From: Thiohalospira sp.
GTDB taxonomy: Bacteria; Bacteroidota; Bacteroidia; Bacteroidales; UBA12077
Direction of reading: 5' to 3'
NCBI GenBank assembly: GCA_046538755.1
Contig: JBKHIH010000007.1
Span: 16,760 to 80,759, forward strand
DNA: 64,000 nucleotides
The first letter of the stretch is position 1, and each line of letters begins with the position of its first letter. Of the stretch, positions 1,383 to 59,107 are shown in pieces. The notes below the pieces were generated by a model. The model did not search any database. It worked only from the letters and a program-made list of their open reading frames with translations, and was not told where the DNA came from. The translations under genes and the position numbers were made by a program.

Positions 1383-2501
1383 TTATCGTAATTTCCTTCC
1401 TTTCCATGAAAAATTTGCCATCCAGCCACAAAAAGTAGTTACCATAATATAAAAAGGGTAAATAAGTTGTAGTGGAAAAAATAGCCATAGCAGCTTTTGT
1501 TGGTTAAAAAATTTTGTTCCGGGAATAAGAATAAAGAGGTCTGCCAACGATTTAATAACAAAAAGCAATACAAAAATATACCATTCGTAAGGCCGGAAGA
1601 TTGTATTTATTAGCCAATATACAATCAACAAATTGCTTGCTGCAACCATAAGTGCTGTAATAATTATGTCGAAATCGCGATAAGCTTTGCTTTTGGAAGT
1701 CCACCGAATGCGTTGATTAAAGAAATCCGACAGGGTATGATTGGGTTTGGTGAAAACTATCGCTTCTTTTGATTTTATAAAATGGATGTTTTTGTTGTAA
1801 TTTTTTTTGGCTTGCAGCATAAGAAAAATATCATCACCTGAGGCATAATTTGAGTGTAATTCATTTTCGATAAACAGCGATTTTTCAAATAGCAGGTTTG
1901 CACCATTACACATAATTGGTTTATTAATTCCTGCCGCTCCTGCACCAGAAATAATAAGACTTGTAAATTCCAATGCCTGTAATCGGGCAAAAATATTGGT
2001 CGAGGGTTCGATAGCCACCGGGGCAATAATCATATTTGGTTTATGGATGCTGTAATATTCTGCCAGTGTCGACAGCCATTTTGTACCCATCCGGCAATCA
2101 GCATCGGTGGTTACTATAATTTTTGAAGAGCTGTGTTTTATACCGTAAGCCAGAGCAGCTTTTTTCCCTTTTTGCTTGTAAGGGTTTTGTATGATTTTTA
2201 TGTGATTGTTTTTCTCTGCATGCTTTTTTAAATTTTTGTAGGTATTATCTTCGGAATGGTCATCGACAAAAATGATTTCTGCATTTTTTTTTGGATAGTT
2301 TTGTTGCAAGAGTGGCTGAATCAAATTATCGATATTTTCTTCTTCGTTTCGGCAGGCAATTACAATACTTACCGATTCTCTCACAGCATAATTATTATGA
2401 TGTTTATAATACTTTAATTTAAACCATCCCAGCGCAAAAGAAATGATTGTAATTCCATATACAATTAGAATCAGAAATGATAGCGTGATAAAAAAATTCA
2501 T
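1383..2501 (-). CDS. Family 2 glycosyltransferase, membrane-anchored
   Basis: SIVIACRNEE, FVDDHS, TTDADC (DxD), GDD and QRIRW motifs; N- and C-terminal TM helices. ATG at 2501 preferred over TTG at 2522. Confidence 0.9.
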   Translation of the reverse strand: MNFFITLSFLILIVYGITIISFALGWFKLKYYKHHNNYAVRESVSIVIACRNEEENIDNLIQPLLQQNYPKKNAEIIFVDDHSEDNTYKNLKKHAEKNNHIKIIQNPYKQKGKKAALAYGIKHSSSKIIVTTDADCRMGTKWLSTLAEYYSIHKPNMIIAPVAIEPSTNIFARLQALEFTSLIISGAGAAGINKPIMCNGANLLFEKSLFIENELHSNYASGDDIFLMLQAKKNYNKNIHFIKSKEAIVFTKPNHTLSDFFNQRIRWTSKSKAYRDFDIIITALMVAASNLLIVYWLINTIFRPYEWYIFVLLFVIKSLADLFILIPGTKFFNQQKLLWLFFPLQLIYPFYIMVTTFCGWMANFSWKGRKLR

Positions 2502-2568
2502 TACAACCTGTTTTATTTTCAAAAGTAATAAATAAATTTTGGCTTTGGTTGCGAAATTACTTGATGGT

Positions 2569-2615: not shown

Positions 2616-4163
2616 ATGATGCGGTTTAAATATTTTAAATGGTATTTAGTAGTTTTCTTTATAGTGCTTTTAACAACAGATTGTAATGCGCAAACTGTTA
2701 AAAGCGATAAAAATCAGCAGGAGTGTATCGACAGAGAGCCTGTAGTTGCAGGGTCTTTTTATCCGGATAACCCCGAATCGTTAAAAATGATGTTAGAATC
2801 ACTTTTCGCACGCAGCGAAACCGTTAAAACCTACAATGATGTTTTAGCCATTATTTCACCACATGCTGGTTATCCGTATTCGGGAAAAGTAGCTGCTTCG
2901 GCTTTTAACCAAATCGACACGGAAAAAAGCTATGAAAATATATTTATATTGGCCTCGAGCCACAGAGTAATATTTAACGGAGCCTCCATTTATAATGTTG
3001 GCGATTATATTACTCCGTTGGGAAAAGTAAAAGTAAACCGCAAACTGGCAAACGAGCTAATCGAACAACATAAAATTTTTGTTTATCATCCCGATGCCCA
3101 CAAAGCTGAACATAGCCTTGAAGTCCAATTGCCGTTTTTACAATATAAAATGACTAAGGATTTTAAAATTGTGCCGATTGTAACTGGTACGCAAAACATG
3201 AATGATTGTAAAAAAATTGCTGCTGCCTTAAAACCGTATTTTAATGAAAATAATTTATTTGTCATAAGTACCGATTTCTCACATTATCCGGCTTATAATG
3301 ATGCAATAAAAGTGGACAAAAAAACCGGAGATGCTATTTTGGCCAATTCGGTAAACAGAGTAATTGATGCAATCAGTGAAAATGAATCGGCACACATTGA
3401 AAACCTGGCTACAAGTATGTGCGGATGGCCTGCTGTGATTTCACTATTATATATTACGCAGGATATGCCAGATGTTAATATTATTCATGTCGATTATCAG
3501 AATTCTGGCGATGAAACCCGCGATAAAAGCCGCGTGGTTGGATATCATGCCATTGCATTTGAAAGAATAAAAACAAAAAATATGTCTGAAAATCATTTTA
3601 AACTTACCGATGAAGAAAAGCTTAAGCTATTGGAAATAGCCCGAATTACAATTAATGAATACCTGGAATCTGGAAAAATGCCGGATATAGATGCAGAAAA
3701 GATAACACCCGAAATGCGGGAGCACTGTGGAGCTTTTGTAACATTACATTTAGAAGGAGCATTGCGTGGTTGTATCGGAAGGTTTTCGGCCAACGAGCCT
3801 TTGTATGAAATTGTTCAGAAAATGGCTGTTGCTGCTGCCACTGAAGACCACAGGTTCTCTCCAGTACAGCCCGAAGAAATGAATAAAATTGACCTTGAAA
3901 TTTCCGTATTAACACCAATGAAGAAGATTAAATCGATTGATGAAATTGAAATGGGCAGGCATGGAATTTATATTAAAAAAGGATTCGCAACCGGAACATT
4001 TTTACCTCAGGTAGCCCAAGAAACCGGTTGGGCTAAAGAAGAGTTTTTAGGATACTGTTCAAGAAATAAAGCCGGATTGGGATGGGATGGATGGAAAGAT
4101 GCCGATATTTTTGTATACGAGGCGCTTGTTTTTGGTGAAAAAGAATTTAAAAAAGACAATTAA
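2616..4163 (+). CDS. amrB: AmmeMemoRadiSam protein B (Memo-like) fused to protein A (AMMECR1-like), with an N-terminal signal peptide
   Basis: Memo motifs REPVVAGSFYP, SPHAGY, EHSLEVQLPFLQ, STDFSHY, SMCG; AMMECR1 motifs GAFVTL, LRGCIG, LPQVA; hydrophobic N-terminus ending CNA|Q. Confidence 0.9.
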   Translation: MMRFKYFKWYLVVFFIVLLTTDCNAQTVKSDKNQQECIDREPVVAGSFYPDNPESLKMMLESLFARSETVKTYNDVLAIISPHAGYPYSGKVAASAFNQIDTEKSYENIFILASSHRVIFNGASIYNVGDYITPLGKVKVNRKLANELIEQHKIFVYHPDAHKAEHSLEVQLPFLQYKMTKDFKIVPIVTGTQNMNDCKKIAAALKPYFNENNLFVISTDFSHYPAYNDAIKVDKKTGDAILANSVNRVIDAISENESAHIENLATSMCGWPAVISLLYITQDMPDVNIIHVDYQNSGDETRDKSRVVGYHAIAFERIKTKNMSENHFKLTDEEKLKLLEIARITINEYLESGKMPDIDAEKITPEMREHCGAFVTLHLEGALRGCIGRFSANEPLYEIVQKMAVAAATEDHRFSPVQPEEMNKIDLEISVLTPMKKIKSIDEIEMGRHGIYIKKGFATGTFLPQVAQETGWAKEEFLGYCSRNKAGLGWDGWKDADIFVYEALVFGEKEFKKDN

Positions 4164-4498
4164 TGGAAACTTATGGATTTTTGCCTATTGCTGCAAGTGC
4201 ACTAATAATTTATTTAATAAGTTATTACTTAACACGTATTAACAATTATAAATTTACGACCCATCGGCGTATTTGGAACTTATTATTGCTTATATCATTC
4301 CTTGTTGCCGGCTTAATTGGAATGTTTATGGCGGTGGTTATTAGTTTTGAATTTAACATCAGTTATCCTTTTGAATTATTAAAAATACATGTTGGTTTTG
4401 GAATTGTTTGGTTTATCATTGCCACTTTTCATTTTTTTTGGCATCTTTCTTATTTTAGGAAATCGTTAAAAAAGTTATTTACAAAATCATCGAAATAG
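4163..4498 (+). CDS. Small 3-TM membrane protein, DUF4405-like (possible cytochrome b-type)
   Basis: 111 aa; three hydrophobic helices with His at HRRIWN, KIHVGFG and FHFFWH; start overlaps the upstream stop (TAATG). Confidence 0.6.
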   Translation: METYGFLPIAASALIIYLISYYLTRINNYKFTTHRRIWNLLLLISFLVAGLIGMFMAVVISFEFNISYPFELLKIHVGFGIVWFIIATFHFFWHLSYFRKSLKKLFTKSSK

Positions 4499-4505
4499 TA
4501 TTAAT

Positions 4506-6638
4506 ATGTTTAAAACTTTTTTAAAATATACAAAGACTGGCATTATACTGCTGGGATTTATTACCTTTATTACACAAATAATTTTATTGCGCGAGTTTCT
4601 TACTTTTTTTAATGGTAACGAACTGGTTATAGGAATTATTCTGGCAAACTGGATGCTGCTTACCGGATTTGGTGCTTACATTGGCAGGTTTTTTAAAACA
4701 CATCGAAACAGACAAACAATAATATTTTCCTTGCTTGCACTATTAATTTTTATCCCTGTTGTAACAGTGTTTTTGCTTCATTTTTTATGGAATGCAATTT
4801 ATCCCGGTGGTGTAATGGTGGGTATTACACAAGTGTTTTATTATTCTTTGTTTTTGTTGAGTCCCTTTTGTATTGTTGCAGGCATGCTCTTTACTTTAAT
4901 AGCAAAAGACGAATCATTTTTATCAGACAAGAACCGGGTAGATGCGGTTTATGCCTGGGAATCGGCCGGAAGTATGCTAGGCGGATTAATTTTAAATTTT
5001 GTGTTGGTATGGTATTTTAAAACATTCGAAAGTTTATATATTTTAATGTCCATAGGAGTTATCGTTACTTTATACTTAACCATCAGAACCAATCATATTT
5101 TTATCTCCGGTATCCTGGTTTTTGTTTTTCTGGCCTTTAATTTTTTATTTTTTCAAAATGATTTGGATAAATCAGTGCGTGAGCTTTCTTTTCATAATCA
5201 GGAAATCCAGTTTGTTAAAGATACTCCTTTTGGAGTGCTGGCCATTACAAAACAAGACGAACAAACCAATTATTACGAGAATAATGTATTGATGGCAACA
5301 TCTGGTGATGTAACGATAAAGGAAGAAGCCGCTCATTTTCCTATGGTTCAGTACGAAAACCCTGAAAATGTACTGGTGCTTTCAGGTATTATTACCGGAA
5401 TTCTTGATGAAGTTGTTAAATATCCTGTAAAAAGAATTGATTATGTGGATGTTAATCCATGGATTATAAAAATCGCTAAAGATTTTTTTAAAATCGACAG
5501 CATGCAAACGGTTCATATTATTAAAGATGACCCTTTAAGGTATCTAAAAAGTATAGATCGCAAGTATGATGTAATTATTATTAACCTCCCTAAACCTTCT
5601 ACTATTCAGTTTAACAGATATTATTCGCAGGAATTCTTTGCGCTGCTCAAAAATCATCTTACCCAAAATGCGGTGATATCATTTTCCATGCCTTCGAGTT
5701 CTAATTACCTTAACGAAGAAGCCCGTAATCTCCTGTCTATCCTAAATAAAACACTAAAAACAACTTTTAATCATGTGATGATTTTACCTGGAAATGAAGA
5801 TTACATCCTGGCATCCGATAAGGAATTAACATATCAAATAACTGAACAGATTGCAGCAAAAAATATTGCTACCGAATATGTTAACACCTTTTATTTTGAT
5901 GATGATTTGCTAAAAAGCCGCAGTAAGTTAATTATGGATCAATTAACAGATGATGTGCCGTTGAATAAAAGCTATAATCCAGTATGTTATCAAAGCCAGA
6001 TAAAATTGTGGCTAAGCCATTTTGATGTTAATTATTGGTTGCCGGCTTTGATTATCTTATTATTTTCAGGATTTTTCTTCTTTAAAGCAAATGCTATCAA
6101 TAAAGGAGTTTTTGCAGCCGGTTTTGCCGGTACAAGTATTGAGTTTGTACTTTTGCTTGTTTTTCAGGTTATTTACGGATATGTTTACGTTGTGGCCGGA
6201 ATGTTTATTATGGTTTTTATGGGCGGCTTAGCTTTGGGTGCCTATTATACCCCAAAAATTTTTAAAACCATCCATCGAGAATTATTCTCACGTATACTAA
6301 TGTTAATTGCTGCTTTTGCTTTTGTGTTGCCGGCAATTTTTATTTTACTTAAAAATATTCATTTACCTGCCCTTTTAATTTTTACTGCTTTTTTTCTTTT
6401 AGTTGCTTTTATTTCAATTTCAACGGGAGTTATATTTTCTATGGCAACGCGGTTAAGTCATAACGATCATGGGATTATTGCATCGAATGTTTACGGATTA
6501 GATTTATTGGGAGCTGCTGCCGGTGCACTGCTTTTTGCCATTTATTTGGTTCCCATTTTAGGATTTTTATGGTCGGTTGTAATTACCGGAATACTTAATT
6601 TGTTTGTTGCCGGTTGGGTTTGGGTTAAAAAATGGTGA
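4506..6638 (+). CDS. Polytopic membrane protein with a central spermidine synthase/SAM-dependent transferase-like domain
   Basis: TQIILLREFL..GNELVIG, YAWESAGSMLG, KYDVIIINLPKPST..NRYYSQEFF and YGLDLLGAAAG are typical of the fused membrane/SpeE-like family. Confidence 0.8.
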   Translation: MFKTFLKYTKTGIILLGFITFITQIILLREFLTFFNGNELVIGIILANWMLLTGFGAYIGRFFKTHRNRQTIIFSLLALLIFIPVVTVFLLHFLWNAIYPGGVMVGITQVFYYSLFLLSPFCIVAGMLFTLIAKDESFLSDKNRVDAVYAWESAGSMLGGLILNFVLVWYFKTFESLYILMSIGVIVTLYLTIRTNHIFISGILVFVFLAFNFLFFQNDLDKSVRELSFHNQEIQFVKDTPFGVLAITKQDEQTNYYENNVLMATSGDVTIKEEAAHFPMVQYENPENVLVLSGIITGILDEVVKYPVKRIDYVDVNPWIIKIAKDFFKIDSMQTVHIIKDDPLRYLKSIDRKYDVIIINLPKPSTIQFNRYYSQEFFALLKNHLTQNAVISFSMPSSSNYLNEEARNLLSILNKTLKTTFNHVMILPGNEDYILASDKELTYQITEQIAAKNIATEYVNTFYFDDDLLKSRSKLIMDQLTDDVPLNKSYNPVCYQSQIKLWLSHFDVNYWLPALIILLFSGFFFFKANAINKGVFAAGFAGTSIEFVLLLVFQVIYGYVYVVAGMFIMVFMGGLALGAYYTPKIFKTIHRELFSRILMLIAAFAFVLPAIFILLKNIHLPALLIFTAFFLLVAFISISTGVIFSMATRLSHNDHGIIASNVYGLDLLGAAAGALLFAIYLVPILGFLWSVVITGILNLFVAGWVWVKKW

Positions 6639-6704
6639 TTTAGATTTTTCGTTTCCATTTCGTAAATTGCGATTCATAATTTACGCAACGCAAAATACGG
6701 AATC

Positions 6705-7836
6705 ATGCAACAAAAAACCATCAAATCCATTTATTCTAACAGGATGCTATTCACCTGAGTATTTTTATGGCCGCAACGAAGAGTTTGCAAAATTATCAGA
6801 AGCGATTAAAAATGAGCGAAATGTTACTTTGTTTTCTTTGCGCAGGTTAGGAAAAACAGCATTAATACAGCACTTGTTTCATTTTTTAGAAAAAGATAAT
6901 CATTTTATTACTCTTTATGTAGATATTTTATCAACAGATTCGTTGCAAAACCTTACACAAAAAATTGCTACATCAGTAGTTCGAAAATTTGGGAGTATTG
7001 AAAAACGCGGATTAACCAAAAAAATACAAGATTTTATAAGGAATATTGGCGCCGGAATAGAGTTTGACCCTGTATCTGGTAACCCGTCAATAAAGTTTTC
7101 ATATGCCGATTATGATCAATCAAAATTGTCATTACAAACAATTTTAGATTTTTTGAGTAAACAAAAGCAAACAGTTGTTATAGCTCTTGATGAGTTTCAT
7201 CAAATAACCAGGTATCAGGAGGATAGCCCTGAAGCTTTTATCCGGTCTTTGGTGCAGGAATTTCCAGGTATCCGGTTTATTTTTAGTGGCAGTCACCGTA
7301 ATATTATGATTTCGCTTTTTACAGGGCCTGGGCAACCATTTTACAGAAGTACTCAGATTTTTGAATTGTTGAATATCCATCCTGATGAATACAGCCATTT
7401 TATAAAGTATCATTTAAAAAAAGATAACAAAATAATTGAACAGGAAGCCATTAATAGGATATTTGATTGGACAAACTTACAAACCTACTATGTTCAGTTG
7501 GTTTGTAACAGATTGTATAGTTCATATGAAAATATTTCTATGGAGTTAGTAAATGATACTTTTTTGAAAATTCTTGAAGAAGAGCAGACTGTTTTTTCAA
7601 ATTACAGAAATTTATTAACATTTGTTCAATGGCGTGTTCTGGTAGCTTTATCTAAAGATGCACCCGTAAGCGAACCTACAAGTGGATCATTTTTAAGGAA
7701 ACATAATATTTCATCAACAAGTACTATGAGCACAGCAATAAAGGCATTACAAGAAAAGGAATTGATTATAAAATTAAAGGGTCAGTATATTATTCATGAT
7801 ACATTGTTGATGCGATGGATTCAACAAAATTTTTAG
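6705..7836 (+). CDS. AAA+ ATPase (archaeal ATPase-like, probable C-terminal winged helix); natural ATG appears out of frame
   Basis: NPF..G...EYFYGRNEE, Walker A SLRRLGKT, Walker B IALDEFHQI, FIFSGS. ATG 6705 is separated from the coding frame by one extra base in the A6 tract at 6712-6717. Confidence 0.75.
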
Positions 7837-7853
7837 TATAGGATGACAAAATA

Positions 7854-7885
7854 ATTGTATTTCGCCAAATTCAATCTTAAATTTG
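7854..7885 (+). promoter_or_regulatory. Putative promoter for amrS
   Basis: Perfect TAnnTTTG (TAAATTTG, 7878-7885) with ATTG 20 nt upstream. Confidence 0.55.
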
Positions 7886-7931
7886 AAAAACAAATGAGTT
7901 TAATTTTCGTTTTTAATACAAAAAAGGAGTT

Positions 7932-9068
7932 ATGAGTAAGCACAGAATAAGTAAACGTGAATTCCTGAAATACGGATTTTTGGGCTCCTGTGCTTGTTTA
8001 ATGGGAGTTGGTAAGTTGCATGCTTTTAACAATATTTCATTATCGAATGATGGCCTTTGGAAATGGAGTAAATTATCGCGTTATTATATCGATACACCTC
8101 GCGGTGCTAAGTGTTTAATATGTCCTAATGAATGCACATTAAAAGAAGATGAGGTGGGTGATTGCCGTTCAAGAGTAAATTACGAAGGGAAAATTTATTC
8201 TATTGGTTACGGAAATCCTTGCTCATTGCATGTCGACCCTATAGAGAAAAAACCATTATATCATTTTTTACCCGAAAGCCGTTCGTTTTCATTGGCTGTT
8301 GCCGGCTGCAACCTCGCTTGTTTAAATTGCCAAAATTGGCAAATATCGCAGGTTAGCCCCAAAGATACCCGGAACTATGATTTAATGCCATCCGAAGTCT
8401 ATAAGCAGGCGAAACATTATAATTGCCAGTCTATTGCTTATACTTATTCTGAGCCCATTTCTTTTTACGAGTATTTTTACGACTCGGCAAAGATAGCCAA
8501 AGAACATGGCATAAAAAATGTAATGATTTCCGCCGGTTATATCAATGAAAAGCCATTGCGTGATGTGGCAAAATATGTAGATGCTGCCAATATCGACCTG
8601 AAAAGTTTTAGTGATGAAATTTATGCCCGGTTAAATGCAGGTTCTCTCGAACCGGTATTAAATACTTTAAAAATTTTAAAAGAAGAAGGTGTTTGGCTTG
8701 AAATTACCAATTTGGTTGTACCTGATTGGACAGATGATTTGGATATGATAAAAAAAATGTCGCAGTGGTTATATAAAAATGGATTTAAAGATACTCCCTT
8801 GCATTTTAGCCGATTTACGCCTATGCATAAGTTAACTCATGTGCCGGCAACACCTGTTAGTGTGCTAAATAAAGCACGTAAAATTGCAATGGATGCCGGG
8901 TTACTTTATGTTTATATTGGCAATGTACCCGGTACTGATGCACAAAATACTTACTGTCCGAATTGTAAGGAAATAGTTATTGAACGGAAAGGTTACCGGA
9001 TAACGCAAAATAACATGATTAATGGCAAATGTAAAAACTGTAATGTTTTAATTTCCGGCGTGTGGTAG
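7932..9068 (+). CDS. amrS: AmmeMemoRadiSam radical SAM enzyme with a Tat-like N-terminal leader
   Basis: CLICPNEC, VDPIEKKPLYHF, CxxxCxxC (CNLACLNCQNW), AYTYSEP, NIDLKSF, C-terminal CPNC and CKNC; leader SKREFLK. Confidence 0.92.
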   Translation: MSKHRISKREFLKYGFLGSCACLMGVGKLHAFNNISLSNDGLWKWSKLSRYYIDTPRGAKCLICPNECTLKEDEVGDCRSRVNYEGKIYSIGYGNPCSLHVDPIEKKPLYHFLPESRSFSLAVAGCNLACLNCQNWQISQVSPKDTRNYDLMPSEVYKQAKHYNCQSIAYTYSEPISFYEYFYDSAKIAKEHGIKNVMISAGYINEKPLRDVAKYVDAANIDLKSFSDEIYARLNAGSLEPVLNTLKILKEEGVWLEITNLVVPDWTDDLDMIKKMSQWLYKNGFKDTPLHFSRFTPMHKLTHVPATPVSVLNKARKIAMDAGLLYVYIGNVPGTDAQNTYCPNCKEIVIERKGYRITQNNMINGKCKNCNVLISGVW

Positions 9069-9129: not shown

Positions 9130-9561
9130 TTAGGAATTGTTTTTGTTGCTTCGATTATTATTTTCTGATTGATTTTTTTGATGAAAAAATAATTTGGGAG
9201 CTATAACACCAGTTATAATACCTGCTGCATTGGCATAAAAATCATTAAGGTTGAAAGTTCGTCCGGGAATAAAACTTTGTGCAATTTCACTACCGGCGGC
9301 TAAAAATAATCCACCTATCAGAAAGATGTACAATAATCGCGGTTTTAGGTTAAAATATTTGTTGGCTTTCCATAGTAAGTAAAAAATAGCTAATGAAAAA
9401 TAAGCGATGAAGTGCAATAGATAATCAAGCCGGATAGATTTTTCGTTAAATTCTGTTTTCATTTCAGGGCCTCCGGGGAGGGTAGAAGCCAGAAGGATTA
9501 TAATAAGCCAAAACCAAAAAATAAAACCAAATAATTTTTTATTCCTAAATATAATATCCAT
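9130..9561 (-). CDS. VanZ-like family membrane protein
   Basis: DYLLHFIAYFSL and SEIAQSFIPGRTFNLNDFYANAAG motifs. Confidence 0.8.
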   Translation of the reverse strand: MDIIFRNKKLFGFIFWFWLIIILLASTLPGGPEMKTEFNEKSIRLDYLLHFIAYFSLAIFYLLWKANKYFNLKPRLLYIFLIGGLFLAAGSEIAQSFIPGRTFNLNDFYANAAGIITGVIAPKLFFHQKNQSENNNRSNKNNS

Positions 9562-9623: not shown

Positions 9624-11843
9624 CTACAACAATTTTCTTGATTTTAAACGTAAGCTGTTAAGCACAACAGAAACTGAGCTAAATGCCATAGCTCCACCAG
9701 CAATCATCGGGTTAAGCATAAACCCGTTTACAGGGTATAAAACACCTGCTGCAATTGGAATAGCAATAATGTTGTAAATAAAAGCCCAGAAAAGGTTTTC
9801 GCGAATGGTTTTCAATGTTGCTTTAGAAAGATTGATGGATGCAGCAATTTTTTCCAGGTCGCCTTTTACCAGGGTAATATCGGCACTTTCGATAGCAATG
9901 TCGGTTCCATGCCCCATGGCAATTCCCATGTCGGCTTGCGAAAGGGCAGGAGAGTCGTTTATTCCATCACCAACCATCGCAACTTTAAATCCTTTTTGTT
10001 GTAATTTTTTTACGTATTCTAGTTTGTCTTGGGGCAATACTTCTGCTTTAAATTTGTCGATACCGGTTTGCCGGGCAATTTCTTTTGCGGTGCTGTAATT
10101 ATCGCCAGTGAGCATGTGAATTTGCATTCCCGATTGATGTAACTTGTGAATTGCACGAATAGAATTTTCCTTTATTTTATCGGAAATTGTTATAAGTGCT
10201 ACCAACAATCTGTTTTTAGCTACAAAAACATGAGTCTGTGCTGTATTGCTGTATTGATTAAAATATTGATGCTCGCTTTCGATATCAATATTGTTTTTTT
10301 TCATTAGCTGGTAGTTGCCAATTAAGTAATCATTTTCGTTAAGGGTGGCAGAAACTCCCAACCCTGTTTGACTGTTGAATTTTACAACATTAAGGCTGCT
10401 GTTAGATAGGGGATTGAGATAATTGACAATGGAGTTGGCCAATGGATGCTCCGATTTTTTTTCAATGGCTAAAATATCTTCCAGAATCTGGTCGTGTTTT
10501 ACATCGCTTTTAAGCCATACAATCTCGTTAACTTCAGGTTCTCCTTTGGTTATTGTTCCTGTTTTATCGACCACAACAACATTAATGTTTTTTGCAAACT
10601 CAAGGGTTTGTGCATTTTTAATTAAAATACCATTTTCTGCACCTTTCCCAATACCAACCATTAAAGCCGTTGGAGTAGCCAGTCCAAGTGCGCACGGGCA
10701 GGCAATTATTAATACTGTAACCAGTGTAACAAATGCAAAAGTAGATTTTGGTTCAGGCCCAATAAAATACCAAATTAGGCTACTGGTTATTGCTATAAAA
10801 ATCACTACCGGAACAAAAATGGAGGCAATTTTATCGGCTGTTTTCTGAACAGGCGCTTTACTGCCCTGGGCATTTTTTACCATCTCAATGATTTGCGAAA
10901 GCATGGTGTCTTTACCCACTTTTTCTGCTTTCATAGTAAAACTGCCAGTTTTATTGATGGTAGCTCCAATAACCCTGCCCCCCTTAGTTTTTTCAACGGG
11001 TATAGATTCTCCGGTAATCATACTTTCATCAATTGTTGATTCGCCATCAGTTACCACCCCATCTACCGGTATTTTTTCGCCCGGGCGAATAATGAGGATA
11101 TCTCCCTTTTGAACCTCATCAATAGGAATCTCACTTTCTTTGTGGTTTCTTAAAACACGGGCCGTTTTTACTTTTAATCCCATTAATTTTTTAATGGAAT
11201 CAGAAGTCTTTGATTTGGCTTTTTCTTCAAAATAACGGCCCAATAAAATAAGGGAAATAATTACAGTAGCTGCTTCGAAATAAACATGTGGCTGTAAGCC
11301 TTTTGAAAGTAAATATTCAGGAAAAACAGTGTTAAATGTACTGAACAGAAAAGCGGCCCCGGTACCCAAAGCCACTAAAGTATCCATATTTGTGGATTTG
11401 TTTTTAGCCTGTTTCCATGCGATAATAAAAAATTCGCGGCCAAACCAACCAATTACAGGCAGGGTTAAAAGCATCATGACCCAGTTGGCATAAGGCATTT
11501 TGGGGAAAAACATAGCGATTACAAAAACCGGAATGGAAAATGCAATGGAGAAAAAAGCCCGTTGTTTTGCTTTTTTTAATTTTAATTTTTCTTTTGCTTC
11601 CAGGCCTGAAATATTATCCGAACTATTATCAATAATAAGCTTATAGCCAATTTCATTCACCGCTTTTACCATTTCAGAGGGTGATACGGTGCTTTCGTCA
11701 AATTCGACCAGTACACTTGCATTTGCATAATTAACATTGGCCTGTTTTATCCCTTGTAATGAAGAAAGCATACTCTCTACACTTTTTGCGCATGAAGCAC
11801 AACTCATCCCTTCAACCGGGTATGTTTCTTTTATGATACTCAT
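9624..11843 (-). CDS. copA: Cu(I)-translocating P1B-type ATPase
   Basis: [40 protein letters not shown], and YN and MAFSS transmembrane Cu+ ligands. Confidence 0.93.
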
Positions 11844-11853
11844 ATATTACTGT

Positions 11854-12075
11854 TTATATTTTTTTTGCAATATACCCTGCTTTATTAAAGGCTTCTTGAA
11901 CTTTAGCAACAATTTCCTTTTCGCTAAGTGTATTTGCTTCAACGGTTAAAATTTTATCATCGTGAGATAAATCTACATCCCACGAATTTATTTCATCTAT
12001 TTGATTTAAAAAAGGCCTTACTGAATTTTTGCAACCTTCACATTTTAAGTTGGTTTTAAACTTTAATGTATTCAT
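11854..12075 (-). CDS. Heavy-metal-associated domain chaperone (CopZ-like)
   Basis: 73 aa with TNLKCEGC (CxxC); immediately upstream of copA. Confidence 0.8.
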   Translation of the reverse strand: MNTLKFKTNLKCEGCKNSVRPFLNQIDEINSWDVDLSHDDKILTVEANTLSEKEIVAKVQEAFNKAGYIAKKI

Positions 12076-12082
12076 AATAATA

Positions 12083-12265
12083 TTATTTCTCGTTTTCTTG
12101 TTTATAAGCGTTATAAATTCCTTTTTCTTTCATTTTTTTATATTTCTCAGGGTCTGTTTCTACGCTGAAATCACTGTTTTTTTTTTGTTTGCGTTTAATA
12201 GCGTATATTACCATTATAATTACAGTTATTGCAACTGCAAAAAGTAAAAGCTTTAAGTAAAGCAT
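12083..12265 (-). CDS. Small single-TM hypothetical protein
   Basis: 60 aa; N-terminal hydrophobic helix followed by KRKQKK; tightly packed between DUF302 and the HMA chaperone on the same strand. Confidence 0.55.
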   Translation of the reverse strand: MLYLKLLLFAVAITVIIMVIYAIKRKQKKNSDFSVETDPEKYKKMKEKGIYNAYKQENEK

Positions 12266-55315: not shown

Positions 55316-57120
55316 TAAATAATAATAAAAAGAATTTTTATAAAGATAAAATTGATACTTTAAAGAAAAGAGAATCAAAAATAAAGCAAAATATTTTATG
55401 GCTTGGCATTTTAAGGTTTATCTCTTTTATTCTTTTTATTGTATGGATTGTTTTTTCTGTTAACAATCTTACATGGGTTAATATTTTTTTTTCGGCTTTT
55501 TGGCTATTTTGTTTTATCTCTTTAGTAATATTTCATATTTCTCAAAACCGCGAAATTCTTATGGTTCGCAATCTGATTAAAATAAACCATGAGGAGTTAA
55601 ATGCTTTAGATTATAATTTTTCTGCCTTTAATAGTGGTAAACAATATATTGAACGTAATCATGCTTATGCCTTCGATTTAGATTTATTTGGTGAAGGGTC
55701 ATTATTTCAGTTATTAAACAGAACTTTTACACAAGCTGGTGAACAGTTGTTAGCGCATAAATGGATGAATCCAATAATGGATAAGCAAAAAATAGAGAAA
55801 ATACAAAAAGCCATTCAGGAATTATCAGATAAGATAGATTGGCGGCAACATTTACAGGCTACAGGGAAATTGGTAAAACTATCAGAAAATGATAATCAAA
55901 AAATAAAATTGTGGGTAAATGAACCAGTTTATTTTATTAATCGATGGATTTTTAGATTCTTAGTATTTGTTCTGCCATTTTTTACACTTTCTTTTCTCGT
56001 GTTGTTTATTTTTGGGTTATTGCATTATTCAGTTTTTGTTTTTTTTTCATTGTTACAACTCTTTTTCGCAAGCACTATTATGCGTAAAACCAATAAAGAA
56101 CAGCGAGTTGTTACAGAAGAGATTGAAATTCTTAAAAATTATCATCAAATTATCAGTATTATTGAAAACACATCATTTGCATGTACTGAACTTTCGGACA
56201 TAAAAAAAGGATTATTTATTAATGAAAATTATAGCGCCAGTAATGTTTTAAAGAAATTAATTCGCATTATTGATGCTTTTGATACGCGATTAAATTTAAT
56301 TGTGGGTTTGTTTTTGAATGCCACATTAATGTGGGATTTATTGTCGTTAATGCGCCTGGAGAGATGGAAAAAGAATTATGGTAATCATATTATGTATTGG
56401 ATTAAGATTATTGCACAATTCGACACTTATTGTAGTTTGGCTAATTTCAGATTTAATTATCCGGAATTTATATTTCCGCAAATAATTGATCATAAGGTTT
56501 TAGAGGCTAAAGCTATCGGGCATCCATTAATACATTCTGAAAAAAGAGTAAATAATGATTTTATTATTGAAAAGCCAGGCCAAATAAATATAATAACCGG
56601 AGCAAATATGGCAGGAAAAAGCACTTTCCTTCGTACAATAGGCATTAATTTAATATTGGGATTGAACGGAATGCCGGTTTGTGCCAATGAGTTTAAATTT
56701 AAGTTAATGCATTTATTCTCTGGTATGAGGACATCTGATTCGCTTAAAGAAAATGAATCATATTTTTATGCTGAGTTAAAAAGGTTAAAACAAATTATCG
56801 AAGAAATAAAATCGGGAAAAGAATTGTTTATACTTCTTGATGAAATTTTAAAAGGTACTAACTCAATTGATAAAGCAAAAGGATCGAAAAAGTTTGTAGA
56901 ACATCTAATCGAATTAAAGGCTACAGGTATAATAGCTACACACGATTTAACGCTTTGTGAACTGGAAGATAAATATCCGAATATTATTAATAATCAGTGT
57001 TTTGAAATTGAAATAAGTGGACAACAGATATTTTTTGATTATAAGTTGCGCCACGGAGTAACAAAAAATATGAATGCTTCGGTATTAATGAAACAAATGG
57101 GAATTTTTCCTTGTGGATAA
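55312..57120 (+). CDS. Membrane-anchored MutS-family (domain V) ATPase
   Basis: N-terminal TM helices, DLDLFGEGSLFQ, TGANMAGKSTFLR, SYFYAEL, LDEILKGTNS, ATHD. Confidence 0.88.
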   Translation: MINNNKKNFYKDKIDTLKKRESKIKQNILWLGILRFISFILFIVWIVFSVNNLTWVNIFFSAFWLFCFISLVIFHISQNREILMVRNLIKINHEELNALDYNFSAFNSGKQYIERNHAYAFDLDLFGEGSLFQLLNRTFTQAGEQLLAHKWMNPIMDKQKIEKIQKAIQELSDKIDWRQHLQATGKLVKLSENDNQKIKLWVNEPVYFINRWIFRFLVFVLPFFTLSFLVLFIFGLLHYSVFVFFSLLQLFFASTIMRKTNKEQRVVTEEIEILKNYHQIISIIENTSFACTELSDIKKGLFINENYSASNVLKKLIRIIDAFDTRLNLIVGLFLNATLMWDLLSLMRLERWKKNYGNHIMYWIKIIAQFDTYCSLANFRFNYPEFIFPQIIDHKVLEAKAIGHPLIHSEKRVNNDFIIEKPGQINIITGANMAGKSTFLRTIGINLILGLNGMPVCANEFKFKLMHLFSGMRTSDSLKENESYFYAELKRLKQIIEEIKSGKELFILLDEILKGTNSIDKAKGSKKFVEHLIELKATGIIATHDLTLCELEDKYPNIINNQCFEIEISGQQIFFDYKLRHGVTKNMNASVLMKQMGIFPCG

Positions 57121-57271
57121 CTTTTCAACACCCTTGTACTTTATATTATAGTTGGTTTTTATTTATTTTGCATCGTTTAAAAATTTATTAACAGCTTTTT
57201 GGTTGTGCTTGTTAATAAACAATTTTAACAGTGAGTTTTCTTTTGGTTATATTTACGAAAATTTAGTAGAA

Positions 57272-59107
57272 ATGACGGCTAATTATACAGAAGACAGTAT
57301 TCGTACCCTTGAGTGGAAAGAGCATATTAGAAAACGCCCCGGTATGTATATTGGGAAGTTGGGCGACGGCTCATCTCCAGATGATGGAATTTATGTGTTG
57401 CTGAAAGAAGTAATGGATAACTCTATCGATGAGTTTATGATGGGATTCGGTAAAATGATTGATATTGAGGTAACCGACAGTAGCGTTAAAATTAGAGATT
57501 ATGGGCGTGGGATACCATTAGGTAAACTTTTGGATGTTGCTTCGAAAATGAATACGGGCGCTAAATACGATTCAAAAGTCTTTAAAAAGTCTGTGGGTTT
57601 AAATGGTGTTGGGATTAAAGCTGTAAATGCACTTTCTACAACTTTTTGCATAGAAGCCTATCGCGAAGGTGAAAAAAAACAAATTGAATTTGAGAGAGGC
57701 AATGTTACTCTCGACGAAATGGTGCAGCCAACCAAAGAAAAAAACGGTACAATGGTTTCTTTTGAACCGGACAAAGACCTTTTTGGAAACTATCACTACA
57801 TTAAAGAATATGTGGAGTCGATGGTAAGAAATTATGTTTACCTGAACTCAGGATTGGTTATTAGACTGAATGGTAAAAAATATTTTTCCGAAAACGGATT
57901 GCGTGATTTGTTGGAAGAAAATATGAGCTCCGATGGTATTTATCCCATTATTCATCTTAAAGGCAATGATATTGAAATTGCTATTACCCATGGCAACCAA
58001 TACGGAGAAGAGTATTACAGTTTTGTAAACGGACAACATACTACTCAGGGAGGAACCCATCTTACAGCTTTTCGTGAAGCGTATGTAAAAACCATTCGCG
58101 ATTATTACCGTAAAGATTTTGATCCTTCGGATATTCGTACTTCAATTGTTGCTGCCATTAGTATTAAGGTTGAAGAACCTGTGTTCGAATCACAGACTAA
58201 AACAAAACTGGGTTCTAAAAATATTGCTCCTAACGGCGTTTCTATTCGAAATTTTATCGGCGATTTTCTAAAAAACGAATTGGATAATTATTTGCACAGA
58301 AACCAGGAAACAGCCGATATCCTGTTAAAGAAAATTTTAGAATCTGAGAAAGAAAGAAAAGCCATATCAGGAATAAAAAAGCTTGCCAAACAGAGAGCTA
58401 AAAAAGCCAGTTTGCATAACCGAAAACTTCGCGATTGCAGAGTCCATTATAACTCAAACGATGAGCGAAAAAACGAAACAATGATTTTTATTACCGAGGG
58501 CGATTCGGCCAGCGGCTCAATTACCAAATCGCGGGATGTAAATACCCAGGCTGTATTTAGCTTAAAGGGAAAACCTTTAAATTCGTATGGGCTAACAAAA
58601 AAGGTAGTTTACGAGAATGAAGAATTTAACCTTTTACAAGCTGCTTTGGATATTGAAGAAGGTATAGAAAATTTAAGGTATAAAAGTGTTGTTATTGCTA
58701 CCGATGCCGATGTTGACGGAATGCATATCAGGTTATTGTTATTAACTTTTTTCTTACAATTTTTTCCTGATTTGGTTAAAAACGGGCATCTATTTATTTT
58801 ACAAACACCCCTTTTTAGAGTAAGGAACAAAAAAGAAACCATTTATTGTTATAGTGATCAAGAAAAAGGCCAGGCCATAATAAAACTTAAAAATAATCCG
58901 GAAATTACCCGATTTAAAGGATTAGGTGAAATATCACCTGATGAGTTTAAACATTTTATTGGGAAAGATATCCGGTTAGACCCTGTTAGGCTTAGACGAG
59001 AAGATGCCATTAATGATTTGCTTGAATTTTATATGGGTAAAAATACACCCGAACGGCAGGATTTTATTGTTGAAAACCTTAACATTGACGTGATTGAAGA
59101 GAGATAG
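57272..59107 (+). CDS. parE: DNA topoisomerase IV subunit B
   Basis: [49 protein letters not shown] 57272 is in frame with the track ORF. Confidence 0.93.

Follow-up and report, generated by a model that had tools for sequence, protein, structure and literature searches.

In the window, a stretch of 64,000 nucleotides from contig JBKHIH010000007.1 of GenBank assembly GCA_046538755.1 (Thiohalospira sp., placed in the Bacteroidales by its GTDB lineage), a set of genes related to the AmmeMemoRadiSam system appears to work outside the cytoplasm. The set comprises amrBA, a fusion of the Memo (AmrB) and AMMECR1 (AmrA) families; a gene for a small protein with three transmembrane (TM) helices and four histidines (the 3-TM protein); a gene whose product has 14 TM helices and a SpeE-like domain (the SpeE-membrane protein); and amrS, which encodes a radical S-adenosylmethionine (SAM) enzyme. 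We consider it probable, at roughly 0.6, that the locus is an extracytoplasmic paralogue of AmmeMemoRadiSam, under a full explanation that includes the supply of SAM and a haem relay. The topological core of this explanation, in which AmrBA, AmrS and the SpeE-like domain would all act at the periplasmic face and the membrane protein would serve the exported AmrS, has in our judgement somewhat better than even odds on the sequence features laid out below. A preliminary description of the same DNA had placed these genes at the positions and on the strand where we find them and had proposed a membrane or periplasmic pathway acting on an envelope substrate. Its observations were confirmed and its interpretation is supported in part; given the conserved leaders, the strict co-occurrence of the membrane protein and a SpeE-like domain predicted to face the periplasm, such a pathway is the best reading.

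AmrBA matched both the Memo family (PF01875, 218 bits, residues 41-312; TIGR04336 for AmrB/Memo, 253.9 bits against a cut-off of 26) and the AMMECR1 family (PF01871, 178.8 bits, residues 339-505; TIGR04335 for AmrA/AMMECR1, 175.6 bits against a cut-off of 99). The two domains span residues 40-315 and 338-506, and the Memo motifs SPHAG, EHSLE, DFSHY and MCGW and the AMMECR1 motif LRGCIG are legible in the translation. A sequence search of the PDB returned MEMO1 and the archaeal AMMECR1 proteins MM0484 and PH0010 as the closest solved structures, and the AMMECR1 and Memo matches in that search were all uncharacterised proteins. Upstream of the Memo domain stands the leader MMRFKYFKWYLVVFFIVLLTTDCNA, followed by Gln and divisible into an n-region (MMRFKYFK), an h-region (WYLVVFFIVLLTT) and a c-region (D-C-N-A↓Q, the arrow marking predicted cleavage). 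No later start codon would do away with this leader: the Memo domain begins at residue 40 and already contains the next Met. Here and for AmrS, signal-peptide calls were based on motif, hydropathy and conservation. With its positive n-region and hydrophobic h-region, its small residues in positions -3 and -1 and its Gln at +1, the AmrBA leader has the make-up of a Sec substrate cleaved by signal peptidase I (SPI).

To follow these features through relatives, we used 90 loci, made up of 10 regions cut out of sampled genomes and a further 80 found by way of AmrBA, all of the latter from uncultured Bacteroidota, including metagenome-assembled genomes (MAGs) labelled Ignavibacteria and Chlorobi. 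The hydrophobic core was strong in 78/78 scorable related AmrBA leaders, with a median 12-residue Kyte-Doolittle maximum of 2.62, and nearly all of the related leaders that were read end in x-[SAG]↓Q. The Bacteroidetes Q-rule (PMC5837995, PMC10653852) describes just such a Gln at +1 in SPI substrates. The Sec-type leader ending CNA↓Q that had been proposed for AmrBA is borne out. We rejected a lipoprotein signal: the Cys at -3 is frequent rather than universal, Asp occupies the lipobox -1 position in the window, and x-[SAG]↓Q is the shared ending instead. Cleavage is read as SPI and not SPII on the strength of the first two of these points.

AmrS scored 354.9 bits against TIGR04337 (cut-off 220; residues 59-378), and its CX3CX2C motif is intact (CNLACLNC). 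A sequence search of the PDB found no solved AmrS structure; the nearest solved relative is the pyruvate formate-lyase (PFL) activating enzyme (PDB 3c8f; residues 123-280 aligned, E 1.8e-9). The catalytic domain is preceded by the leader MSKHRISKREFLKYGFLGSCACLMGVGKLHA↓F, which consists of an n-region (S-K-R-E-F-L-K), a G/S/C-rich h-region and a c-region (G-K-L-H-A↓F), and which again cannot be avoided by a later start, since the next Met falls within the catalytic domain. An N-terminal extension was present in 120/120 of the best AmrS clusters (62-91% identity). The leaders of related loci follow the pattern [STN]-K-R-[EDQ]-F-[LI]-[KR], with Lys-Arg (KR) in 49/51, and many of them carry a basic residue and a small-x-small site after the h-region. 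Their median 12-residue peak hydropathy was 1.76, lower than the 2.62 of the AmrBA Sec leaders. This pairing, in which the Fe-S protein AmrS has a weak h-region and the cofactor-less AmrBA a strong one, is what would be expected if AmrS uses twin-arginine translocation (Tat) and AmrBA uses Sec.

The window AmrS departs from the Tat consensus S/T-R-R-x-F-L-K at a single point, Lys standing where the first Arg of the twin-arginine (RR) pair is expected; the rest of the motif, the weak h-region, the basic c-region residue, the A-x-A-type site and the Fe-S passenger are all present. Classical RR leaders were found in 27 of the best 150 AmrS representatives at 50% identity, taken from a HMMER scan of 1.84 billion cluster representatives; these are more distant than the KR clade. 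RR leaders also occur in two further loci, L015, from the sampled phylum, and L116. Because the 27 distant representatives and L015 have the classical pair, KR seems to be the form that a more ancient Tat-type signal takes in this lineage. A TatC gene (PF00902, 229 bits) lies at C82:10284-10985, 5.8 kb upstream of the window. Together, these sequence features strongly indicate that AmrS is made with a Tat-type signal, by which it would be exported. The Tat-like leader ascribed to AmrS in the preliminary description holds up in its conservation, its weak h-region and the presence of TatC in the genome, and falls short of a classical signal in that KR replaces RR. Conservation of the leaders among homologues, on which that description had staked its proposal, extends over ~50 (AmrS) to 78 (AmrBA) related Bacteroidota loci. 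Separately, the AmrS of L015 (G113:C16, about 57073-58035) is a divergent protein of 414 amino acids with the RR leader LSRREFVSK; its gene adjoins a full-length SpeE-membrane orthologue, and it contains an inserted Cys-rich segment with a haem-c-type CxxCH motif (VDCSTCHAS).

Fusion proteins among close relatives of the window AmrS core (49-52% identity) bear on the location of the domain. AmrS follows a single N-terminal anchor and FMN_bind in P0141 and P0148, an anchor and CBM_11 in P0124, and a signal and a beta-propeller in P0125, with no other TM helix in any of them. FMN_bind and carbohydrate-binding modules are extracytoplasmic domains, and the lack of a TM helix between such modules and AmrS places the AmrS domain outside. 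Further fusions join AmrS to an anchor, FMN_bind and NapH-like Fer4_5 (P0126, P0131), to DsbD_2 (P0129, P0142), or to DsbD_2, FMN_bind and Fer4_5 (P0144). PMC10979944 deals with the flavinylation of FMN_bind. Together these fusions form a family of radical SAM proteins that are anchored in the membrane or wired to it. The recurrence of redox modules in these sequences suggests that electron supply is a conserved need of this AmrS lineage.

The distribution of the membrane protein was compared with that of the leaders in 401 genomes of the phylum. AmrS occurred in 103/401, a leader-bearing copy in only 12, and full-length SpeE-membrane orthologues (E 1e-61 or better, residues ~10-690) in exactly those 12, a 12/12 match that is to be read as a pattern and not as a statistical test, the genomes being related and not independent. 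A second AmrS copy was leaderless wherever visible in these 12 genomes, and 20 lower-scoring AmrS copies with long open frames held no hidden leaders. The membrane orthologue was not found in four genomes that have only leaderless AmrS of the lineage, the completeness of which is not established; the AmrBA of these four still has its signal peptide. The partner is present with the leader on AmrS and was not found with a leader on AmrBA alone, and so it follows the export signal of AmrS.

All-against-all clustering of open reading frames (ORFs) from the 90 loci gave AmrBA, AmrS and the SpeE-membrane protein as the only conserved families; the next two clusters were rejected as conserved neighbours, being antisense ORFs within the system genes. 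The SpeE-membrane protein was present in 63 of these loci; of the ones that lack it, many are short or cut off by the end of a contig. In ~50 related loci from several families, amrBA, the SpeE-membrane gene and amrS are immediate or near neighbours. Collectively, these patterns strongly indicate that the SpeE-membrane protein is a dedicated, obligatory partner of exported AmrS, and the association of the SpeE-like gene with the amr genes that had been put forward from the window is upheld.

The predicted architecture of this partner is six TM helices, TM7, the SpeE-fold domain, TM8 and six further TM helices. An AlphaFold2 model built on a 50-sequence alignment (predicted local distance difference test score, pLDDT, 87.4; predicted template-modelling score, pTM, 0.86) has seven helices (2-217), an alpha/beta domain (220-504) and a C-terminal helical block, and a model of the 836-amino-acid fused homologue from L092 (pLDDT 89.2) has 3+7 helices, the domain and seven helices. 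The N- and C-terminal TM blocks are homologous (residues 5-195 and 527-709; hhalign probability 98.1%, E 6.7e-14), so that the TM core consists of two parallel 6-TM repeats, as in transporters of the major facilitator superfamily (MFS); TM7, the domain and TM8 are inserted at the site of the cytoplasmic linker in MFS proteins. The N-terminal block resembles PRK03612 and NF037959. The list of Foldseek matches to the model was taken up by SpeE structures, which say nothing about the fold of the TM core, and a sequence-profile search of the PDB matched no membrane protein. In 62 homologues, the short loops on the side of the N-terminus carry a mean of 16.4 Lys and Arg residues, as against 2.0 on the other side, which by the positive-inside rule places the termini in the cytoplasm and the SpeE-like domain in the periplasm. 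A periplasm-facing domain is predicted on the basis of this charge bias, the two AlphaFold2 models and the internal 6-TM repeat.

The domain itself has the SpeE fold, with the catalytic motif of a spermidine synthase lost. Spermine_synth (PF01564) matched residues 272-418 at 80.9 bits (cut-off 22.9), and Foldseek aligned the domain with the SpeE structures 1uir, 3anx, 1inl and 2o06 (template-modelling score ~0.7 on the target; E 1e-12 to 1e-10 for the first three); the fold is complete, the N-terminal beta domain included. The best NCBIfam match is PRK03612, 'polyamine aminopropyltransferase', and the scores for this and the other SpeE equivalogs lie well short of their cut-offs (PRK03612, 133 against 472; TIGR00417, 73.8 against 249.55; PRK00811, 71.9 against 260). 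The catalytic D-S-T-D-P is replaced by N-L-P-K-P in the window (family consensus N-L-P-x-P) and GGGDGG by S-G-I-I-T-G (family consensus S-G-G-I-S-G), with the Asp specific for decarboxylated SAM (dcSAM) gone. In SpeE structures, the Asp of GGGDGG forms a pair with the dcSAM amine and works against the carboxylate that SAM carries. The domain retains the Gly-rich loop, the acidic residue ending beta2 and the Asp of 'DAR', and E273, H277, K305, Y306, D342, D355 and N370 are invariant polar residues, indicating that the pocket is under selection. The domain is in our view no spermidine synthase, and it plausibly retains a predicted ability to bind an adenosyl ligand. The earlier idea of a SAM/dcSAM-type transferase has to be given up, as the aspartates of D-S-T-D-P and GGGDGG are lost and the protein is not a credible aminopropyltransferase. 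As for lineage-specific neighbours, a secreted protein of ~380 amino acids (…QTHPNFEFSLG[IV]DYSAAEQ…) flanks the SpeE-membrane gene in five loci of genus g99 (L036, L038, L040-L042), and in L041 and L042 amrS and the membrane gene are separated by a branched-chain-aminotransferase-like gene.

The 3-TM protein had no Pfam match above threshold and none at E 0.01 or better. Across 17 homologues, W38, N39, H76, H90 and H94 are invariant and H34 nearly so, and H76-x13-H90 are both on TM3. DUF4405 (PF14358) matched the window protein at 10 bits (E 1.3; cut-off 26.7) and 9/17 homologues below threshold (best E 0.003), while Ferric_reduct and cytochrome b561 each matched 4/17, also below threshold. 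A gene of its own encodes the module only in the window, L046 and L051, whereas in 22 loci it forms the N-terminal part of a fusion with the SpeE-membrane protein; its charge distribution predicts an N-out/C-in topology, consistent with the fusion junction. Binding of haem b is known for a DUF4405 protein and for FezC, a ferrosome protein that is reported to be homologous in sequence to DUF4405 proteins, and the haem sites of FezC have been modelled as formed by a homodimer (PMC10979944). With three helices only, the haem sites of the 3-TM protein would need a dimer or a partner, as in the FezC model. The module is a genuine but optional component, and we put even odds on its relaying electrons via haem b. 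As a co-oriented partner related to DUF4405, the 3-TM protein keeps its four histidines and its fusion to the membrane protein in 22 loci, and what must be qualified is the family assignment, which is sub-threshold, and its standing, which is accessory.

The genome also encodes a canonical leaderless trio on another contig, C55, with identities to the window proteins of 31% (AmrA), 39% (AmrS) and 27% (AmrB); on this account the window holds a second, paralogous AmmeMemoRadiSam system. In a tree of AmrS with the leader removed, leader-bearing AmrS proteins form one clade, apart from the canonical copies.

On the proposed mechanism, four steps are strongly indicated. AmrBA would be made with its Sec/SPI signal peptide and released to the periplasm with an N-terminal Gln; AmrS would acquire both its fold and its Fe-S clusters in the cytoplasm before Tat exported it in the folded state; TM7 and TM8 of the 14-TM protein would push the whole SpeE-fold domain to the periplasmic face of the MFS-like core; and this protein, present with the AmrS leader, would be the dedicated partner. 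Beyond these steps, the transporter-like core may move SAM, or the by-products 5'-deoxyadenosine and methionine, across the membrane, and the outward SpeE-like domain may hold SAM or a related adenosyl compound for AmrS. That the core moves SAM or removes 5'-deoxyadenosine and methionine while the domain presents its ligand to AmrS is a tentative proposal to which we give less than even odds; it is made because exported AmrS has no known outside source of SAM and because the domain keeps nucleotide-pocket features having lost both the aminopropyl-transfer Asp and the SAM-excluding Asp. The 3-TM module could be an optional small haem-b electron relay that helps to reduce the exported Fe-S enzyme, either by dimerising or by docking to the membrane protein; in other relatives, electron-transfer modules not homologous to it (FMN_bind, NapH-like, DsbD_2) are joined directly to the AmrS domain. 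AmrS, Memo and AMMECR1 might jointly act on an envelope-located substrate. An envelope location argues against the nucleic-acid targets that have been suggested for the cytoplasmic system, for this paralogue only. A wider picture, which we hold to be doubtful as a whole, is one of periplasmic radical SAM chemistry in anaerobic Bacteroidota, with related forms elsewhere, in which a dedicated MFS-like exporter would pass SAM to its own outward SpeE-derived domain and this would feed Tat-exported AmrS, redox modules (the 3-TM haem-b module; FMN_bind, NapH-like and DsbD-like modules) would give electrons, and Memo-AMMECR1 would finish the modification of the envelope.

Several observations weigh against an extracytoplasmic AmrS pathway of this kind. 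We know of no radical SAM enzyme, SAM pool or low-potential donor outside the cytoplasm, and the literature that was searched yielded no periplasmic radical SAM enzyme, outside SAM pool or donor; the SAM-delivery role is a proposal, and the 14-TM protein falls one bit short of NF037959, 'fused MFS/spermidine synthase' (38.9 bits, cut-off 40). In the small sister clade of the leader-bearing AmrS proteins (L110, L112, L122 and L124, labelled Tannerellaceae, Parabacteroides, Bacteroidaceae and Lachnospiraceae), a leaderless AmrS comes right after a leader-bearing AmrBA with no membrane partner. The same pairing of leader-bearing AmrBA with leaderless AmrS occurs in L088, where we read it as a secondary loss because L088 is nested in the leader clade. 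In L117 (6837-9341) and P0123, AmrB, AmrA and AmrS form triple fusions of 834-835 amino acids with a Sec-type leader, and these count against the pathway because Sec would thread the Fe-S domain unfolded across the membrane; to our knowledge there is no route for Fe-S loading after Sec export. The sister clade, L088 and the triple fusions raise the possibility that the AmrS step precedes export in some lineages, or that the AmrBA polypeptide is its target. Other candidate Tat substrates in the genome carry RR, unlike AmrS, and the Tat signals of E. coli tolerate a change to lysine poorly (PMC7317946). The 3-TM module, present in ~40% of loci, is missing from ~60%, including L047, whose membrane protein is 88% identical to that of the window. 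A further candidate for leaderless AmrS, L121, was rejected: a leader (MKTINKREFIKRS...) lies upstream in another frame, and at ~12050-12250 the leader MKTINKREFIKRSALCMGG... is out of frame with the catalytic domain, probably through a long-read MAG frameshift and not a true loss.

Some of these points could be accommodated if AmrS acted before export, or were never exported, at the cytoplasmic face, either on the precursor of AmrBA or on a substrate that later moves outward, its KR leader being a poor Tat signal or a membrane tether, with AmrBA alone in the periplasm. We regard this as quite unlikely. The four sister-clade loci and L088 do pair leader-bearing AmrBA with truly leaderless AmrS, and KR is disfavoured in E. 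coli Tat signals; anaerobic sulfatase-maturing enzymes, moreover, act on Sec-exported sulfatases. The radical SAM enzymes HxsB and HxsC, which mature the periplasmic effector HxsA and whose own location is left undetermined there, are a precedent for radical-SAM maturation of a periplasmic protein (PMC13128918). However, the full Tat-like architecture is conserved in the Bacteroidota clade, with classical RR in the 27 distant representatives, the positive n-region predicts an N-in/C-out orientation, the fusions with a single anchor and extracytoplasmic domains place AmrS outside, and the leaderless state of L088 is a secondary loss.

It is also conceivable, if unlikely, that AmrS is exported by Tat in folded form with SAM bound and already reduced, as a single-use activase of AmrBA or another periplasmic protein, and that the membrane protein transports or modifies the real substrate, a small molecule or a lipid. 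No periplasmic SAM pool would then be needed, the nearest characterised relatives of AmrS are activases of glycyl-radical enzymes and act on proteins, and the invariant polar residues of the SpeE-like domain would fit a catalytic or substrate site of its own. A one-shot enzyme is costly, though; the electron-transfer modules fused to AmrS relatives suggest repeated reduction and turnover, and a membrane protein that tracks the leader of AmrS and not that of AmrBA points to service to exported AmrS. Finally, the membrane proteins might be unrelated neighbours, the SpeE-like one an ordinary membrane-bound aminopropyltransferase and the 3-TM one a small protein with no part in the system. The Spermine_synth match above cut-off, the rank of PRK03612 among NCBIfam matches and the many loci without the 3-TM gene speak for this, yet we find it very improbable, and for the SpeE-like protein already contradicted: the NCBIfam SpeE equivalog scores are far under their cut-offs with the catalytic aspartates lost, co-occurrence is complete in the 401 genomes with adjacency in the ~50 loci of several families, and the 3-TM module is fused to the same membrane protein in 22 loci.

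The arrangement of the genes is given in the table below. Five co-oriented ORFs occupy 2616-9068 on the + strand, and the opposite-strand GT2 and VanZ genes bound the unit. The stop codon of amrBA overlaps the ATG of the 3-TM gene (TAATG), for which translational coupling is predicted from the sequence, and 7 nucleotides separate the end of the 3-TM gene from the start of the SpeE-like gene. Three other genes stand between amrBA and amrS on the one strand. The last of them, the ATPase_2/AAA gene between the SpeE-like gene and amrS, had gone unmentioned in the preliminary description, which named the other four. We rejected it as part of the system, since it recurs only in the closest relative, L047; being common to the window and L047 alone, it looks like an insertion into the operon. 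Its annotated TTG start, which overlaps the upstream gene, is probably too early. A scan for promoters and terminators gave the same counts as shuffled sequence, with a consensus ill-suited to Bacteroidota. Among flanking genes, synteny of CopA with the system is limited to the close relatives L047, L051 and L052, and the GT2 gene upstream of amrBA is kept only in the nearest relatives, L046-L051.

Table. Features of the locus in the window, its flanking genes and the canonical trio of the same genome (positions are those of the window unless a contig is named; aa, amino acids).
Feature	Position	Strand	Remarks
GT2 glycosyltransferase, polytopic C-terminus (PgaC/HpnI-like, weak matches)	1383-2522	-	divergent, upstream of amrBA
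amrBA (Memo AmrB + AMMECR1 AmrA fusion, Sec/SPI-type leader)	2616-4163	+	515 aa; Pfam/NCBIfam matches over cut-offs
AmrBA signal peptide, 25 aa, MMRFKYFKWYLVVFFIVLLTTDCNA, predicted cleavage before Gln26	2616-2690	+	hydropathy, x-[SAG]↓Q ending
3-TM four-His membrane protein, cytochrome b/DUF4405-like mini-module	4163-4498	+	111 aa; homologue alignment
14-TM protein with SpeE-fold domain (~residues 220-505), MFS-like duplicated core	4506-6638	+	710 aa
ATPase_2/AAA gene	6604-7836	+	410 aa; DUF234-like, STAND-like, C-terminal winged-helix-like region
amrS, AmmeMemoRadiSam radical SAM enzyme, N-terminal Tat-type (KR) signal	7932-9068	+	378 aa; TIGR04337
AmrS Tat-type leader, 31 aa, predicted cleavage before Phe32	7932-8024	+	motif, hydropathy, conservation
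VanZ gene	9130-9561	-	flanks amrS side
CopA-type P1B ATPase (739 aa) and CopZ-like HMA protein (73 aa)	9624-12075	-	downstream
Canonical leaderless trio of the same genome	C55:2000-4660		AmrA 2000-2533 (177 aa), AmrS 2812-3825 (337 aa), AmrB 3830-4660 (276 aa)

Radical SAM enzymes are regarded as cytoplasmic. They depend on SAM and on a reductant of low potential, and their Fe-S clusters have to be protected. A conserved exported family with a membrane partner, if true, would overturn that assumption and imply delivery of SAM and electrons across the membrane. Periplasmic catalysis, if it is real, would be the first case of both a SAM pool and a radical SAM pathway outside the cytoplasm, and would place the Memo and AMMECR1 families in a biochemical context for the first time. 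Memo (MEMO1 in humans) and AMMECR1 are conserved from archaea to humans, and we know of no reaction for either. An envelope location narrows the candidate substrates, an obligatory partner can be assayed for ligand binding or transport, and the cytoplasmic trio of the same genome and the leaderless sister lineages without the partner are natural comparisons on hand. The 12/12 co-occurrence of the partner, its following the leader of AmrS and not that of AmrBA, the MFS-like repeat, the KR habit, the fusion of the 3-TM module to the membrane protein and the leaderless sister clade are new here.

Canonical AmmeMemoRadiSam is reportedly linked to the modification of nucleotide bases or isoprenoids. 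A literature search, which did not reach the work said to make that link (Burroughs et al. 2019, JBC 294:10211), found no description of an exported AmmeMemoRadiSam system. The window shares with the canonical system the same three families over their curated cut-offs, the clustering of their genes and the intact catalytic motifs (CX3CX2C, the Memo His/Asp/Cys and LRGCIG), but differs in its fused AmrB-AmrA, the export signals on its proteins, an obligatory 14-TM SpeE-like partner, an optional 3-TM His module and a coexisting canonical trio. In E. coli, the MsrPQ (YedYZ) pair consists of a redox enzyme that Tat exports to the periplasm and a haem-b membrane protein, from the ferric-reductase/DUF4405-like group, that feeds it. 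The resemblance is that of a Tat-exported, cofactor-loaded enzyme with a small His-rich membrane protein as a possible electron carrier, whereas the enzyme here, being of the radical SAM kind, depends on SAM and on a far lower potential, and the 3-TM module has three helices and sub-threshold family matches and is dispensable in many loci. Relatives of AmrS fused to FMN_bind, Fer4_5 and DsbD_2 recall the flavinylated extracytosolic electron-transfer modules (PMC10979944), a group that takes in FMN_bind together with NapH/NosR-like Fer4_5 membrane domains as well as the DUF4405 and FezC cytochromes, and the 3-TM module of the window is comparably placed; by contrast, the window operon has no FMN_bind, ApbE or NapH-like gene, and haem binding by the 3-TM protein is only predicted. 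In common with SpeE, PRK03612-type proteins and NF037959, the window family has the full SpeE fold, the Gly-rich loop, the beta2 acidic residue and the 'DAR' Asp, but it has lost the catalytic and dcSAM-specific Asp, carries a second 6-TM repeat after a domain predicted to be periplasmic, and occurs only with exported AmrS.

We know of no export signal on radical SAM maturases such as the anaerobic sulfatase-maturing enzymes and HxsB/HxsC of the HXS anti-phage system, whereas the AmrS of the window itself has a conserved Tat-type signal. Like these maturases, it is linked to a periplasm-bound protein, and the parallel could fit the sister clade with leaderless AmrS. The PFL-activating enzyme (3c8f) shares the radical SAM core and CX3CX2C, and AmrS differs from it in its additional N- and C-terminal Cys-rich regions, the absence of a known glycyl-radical partner and its export signal.

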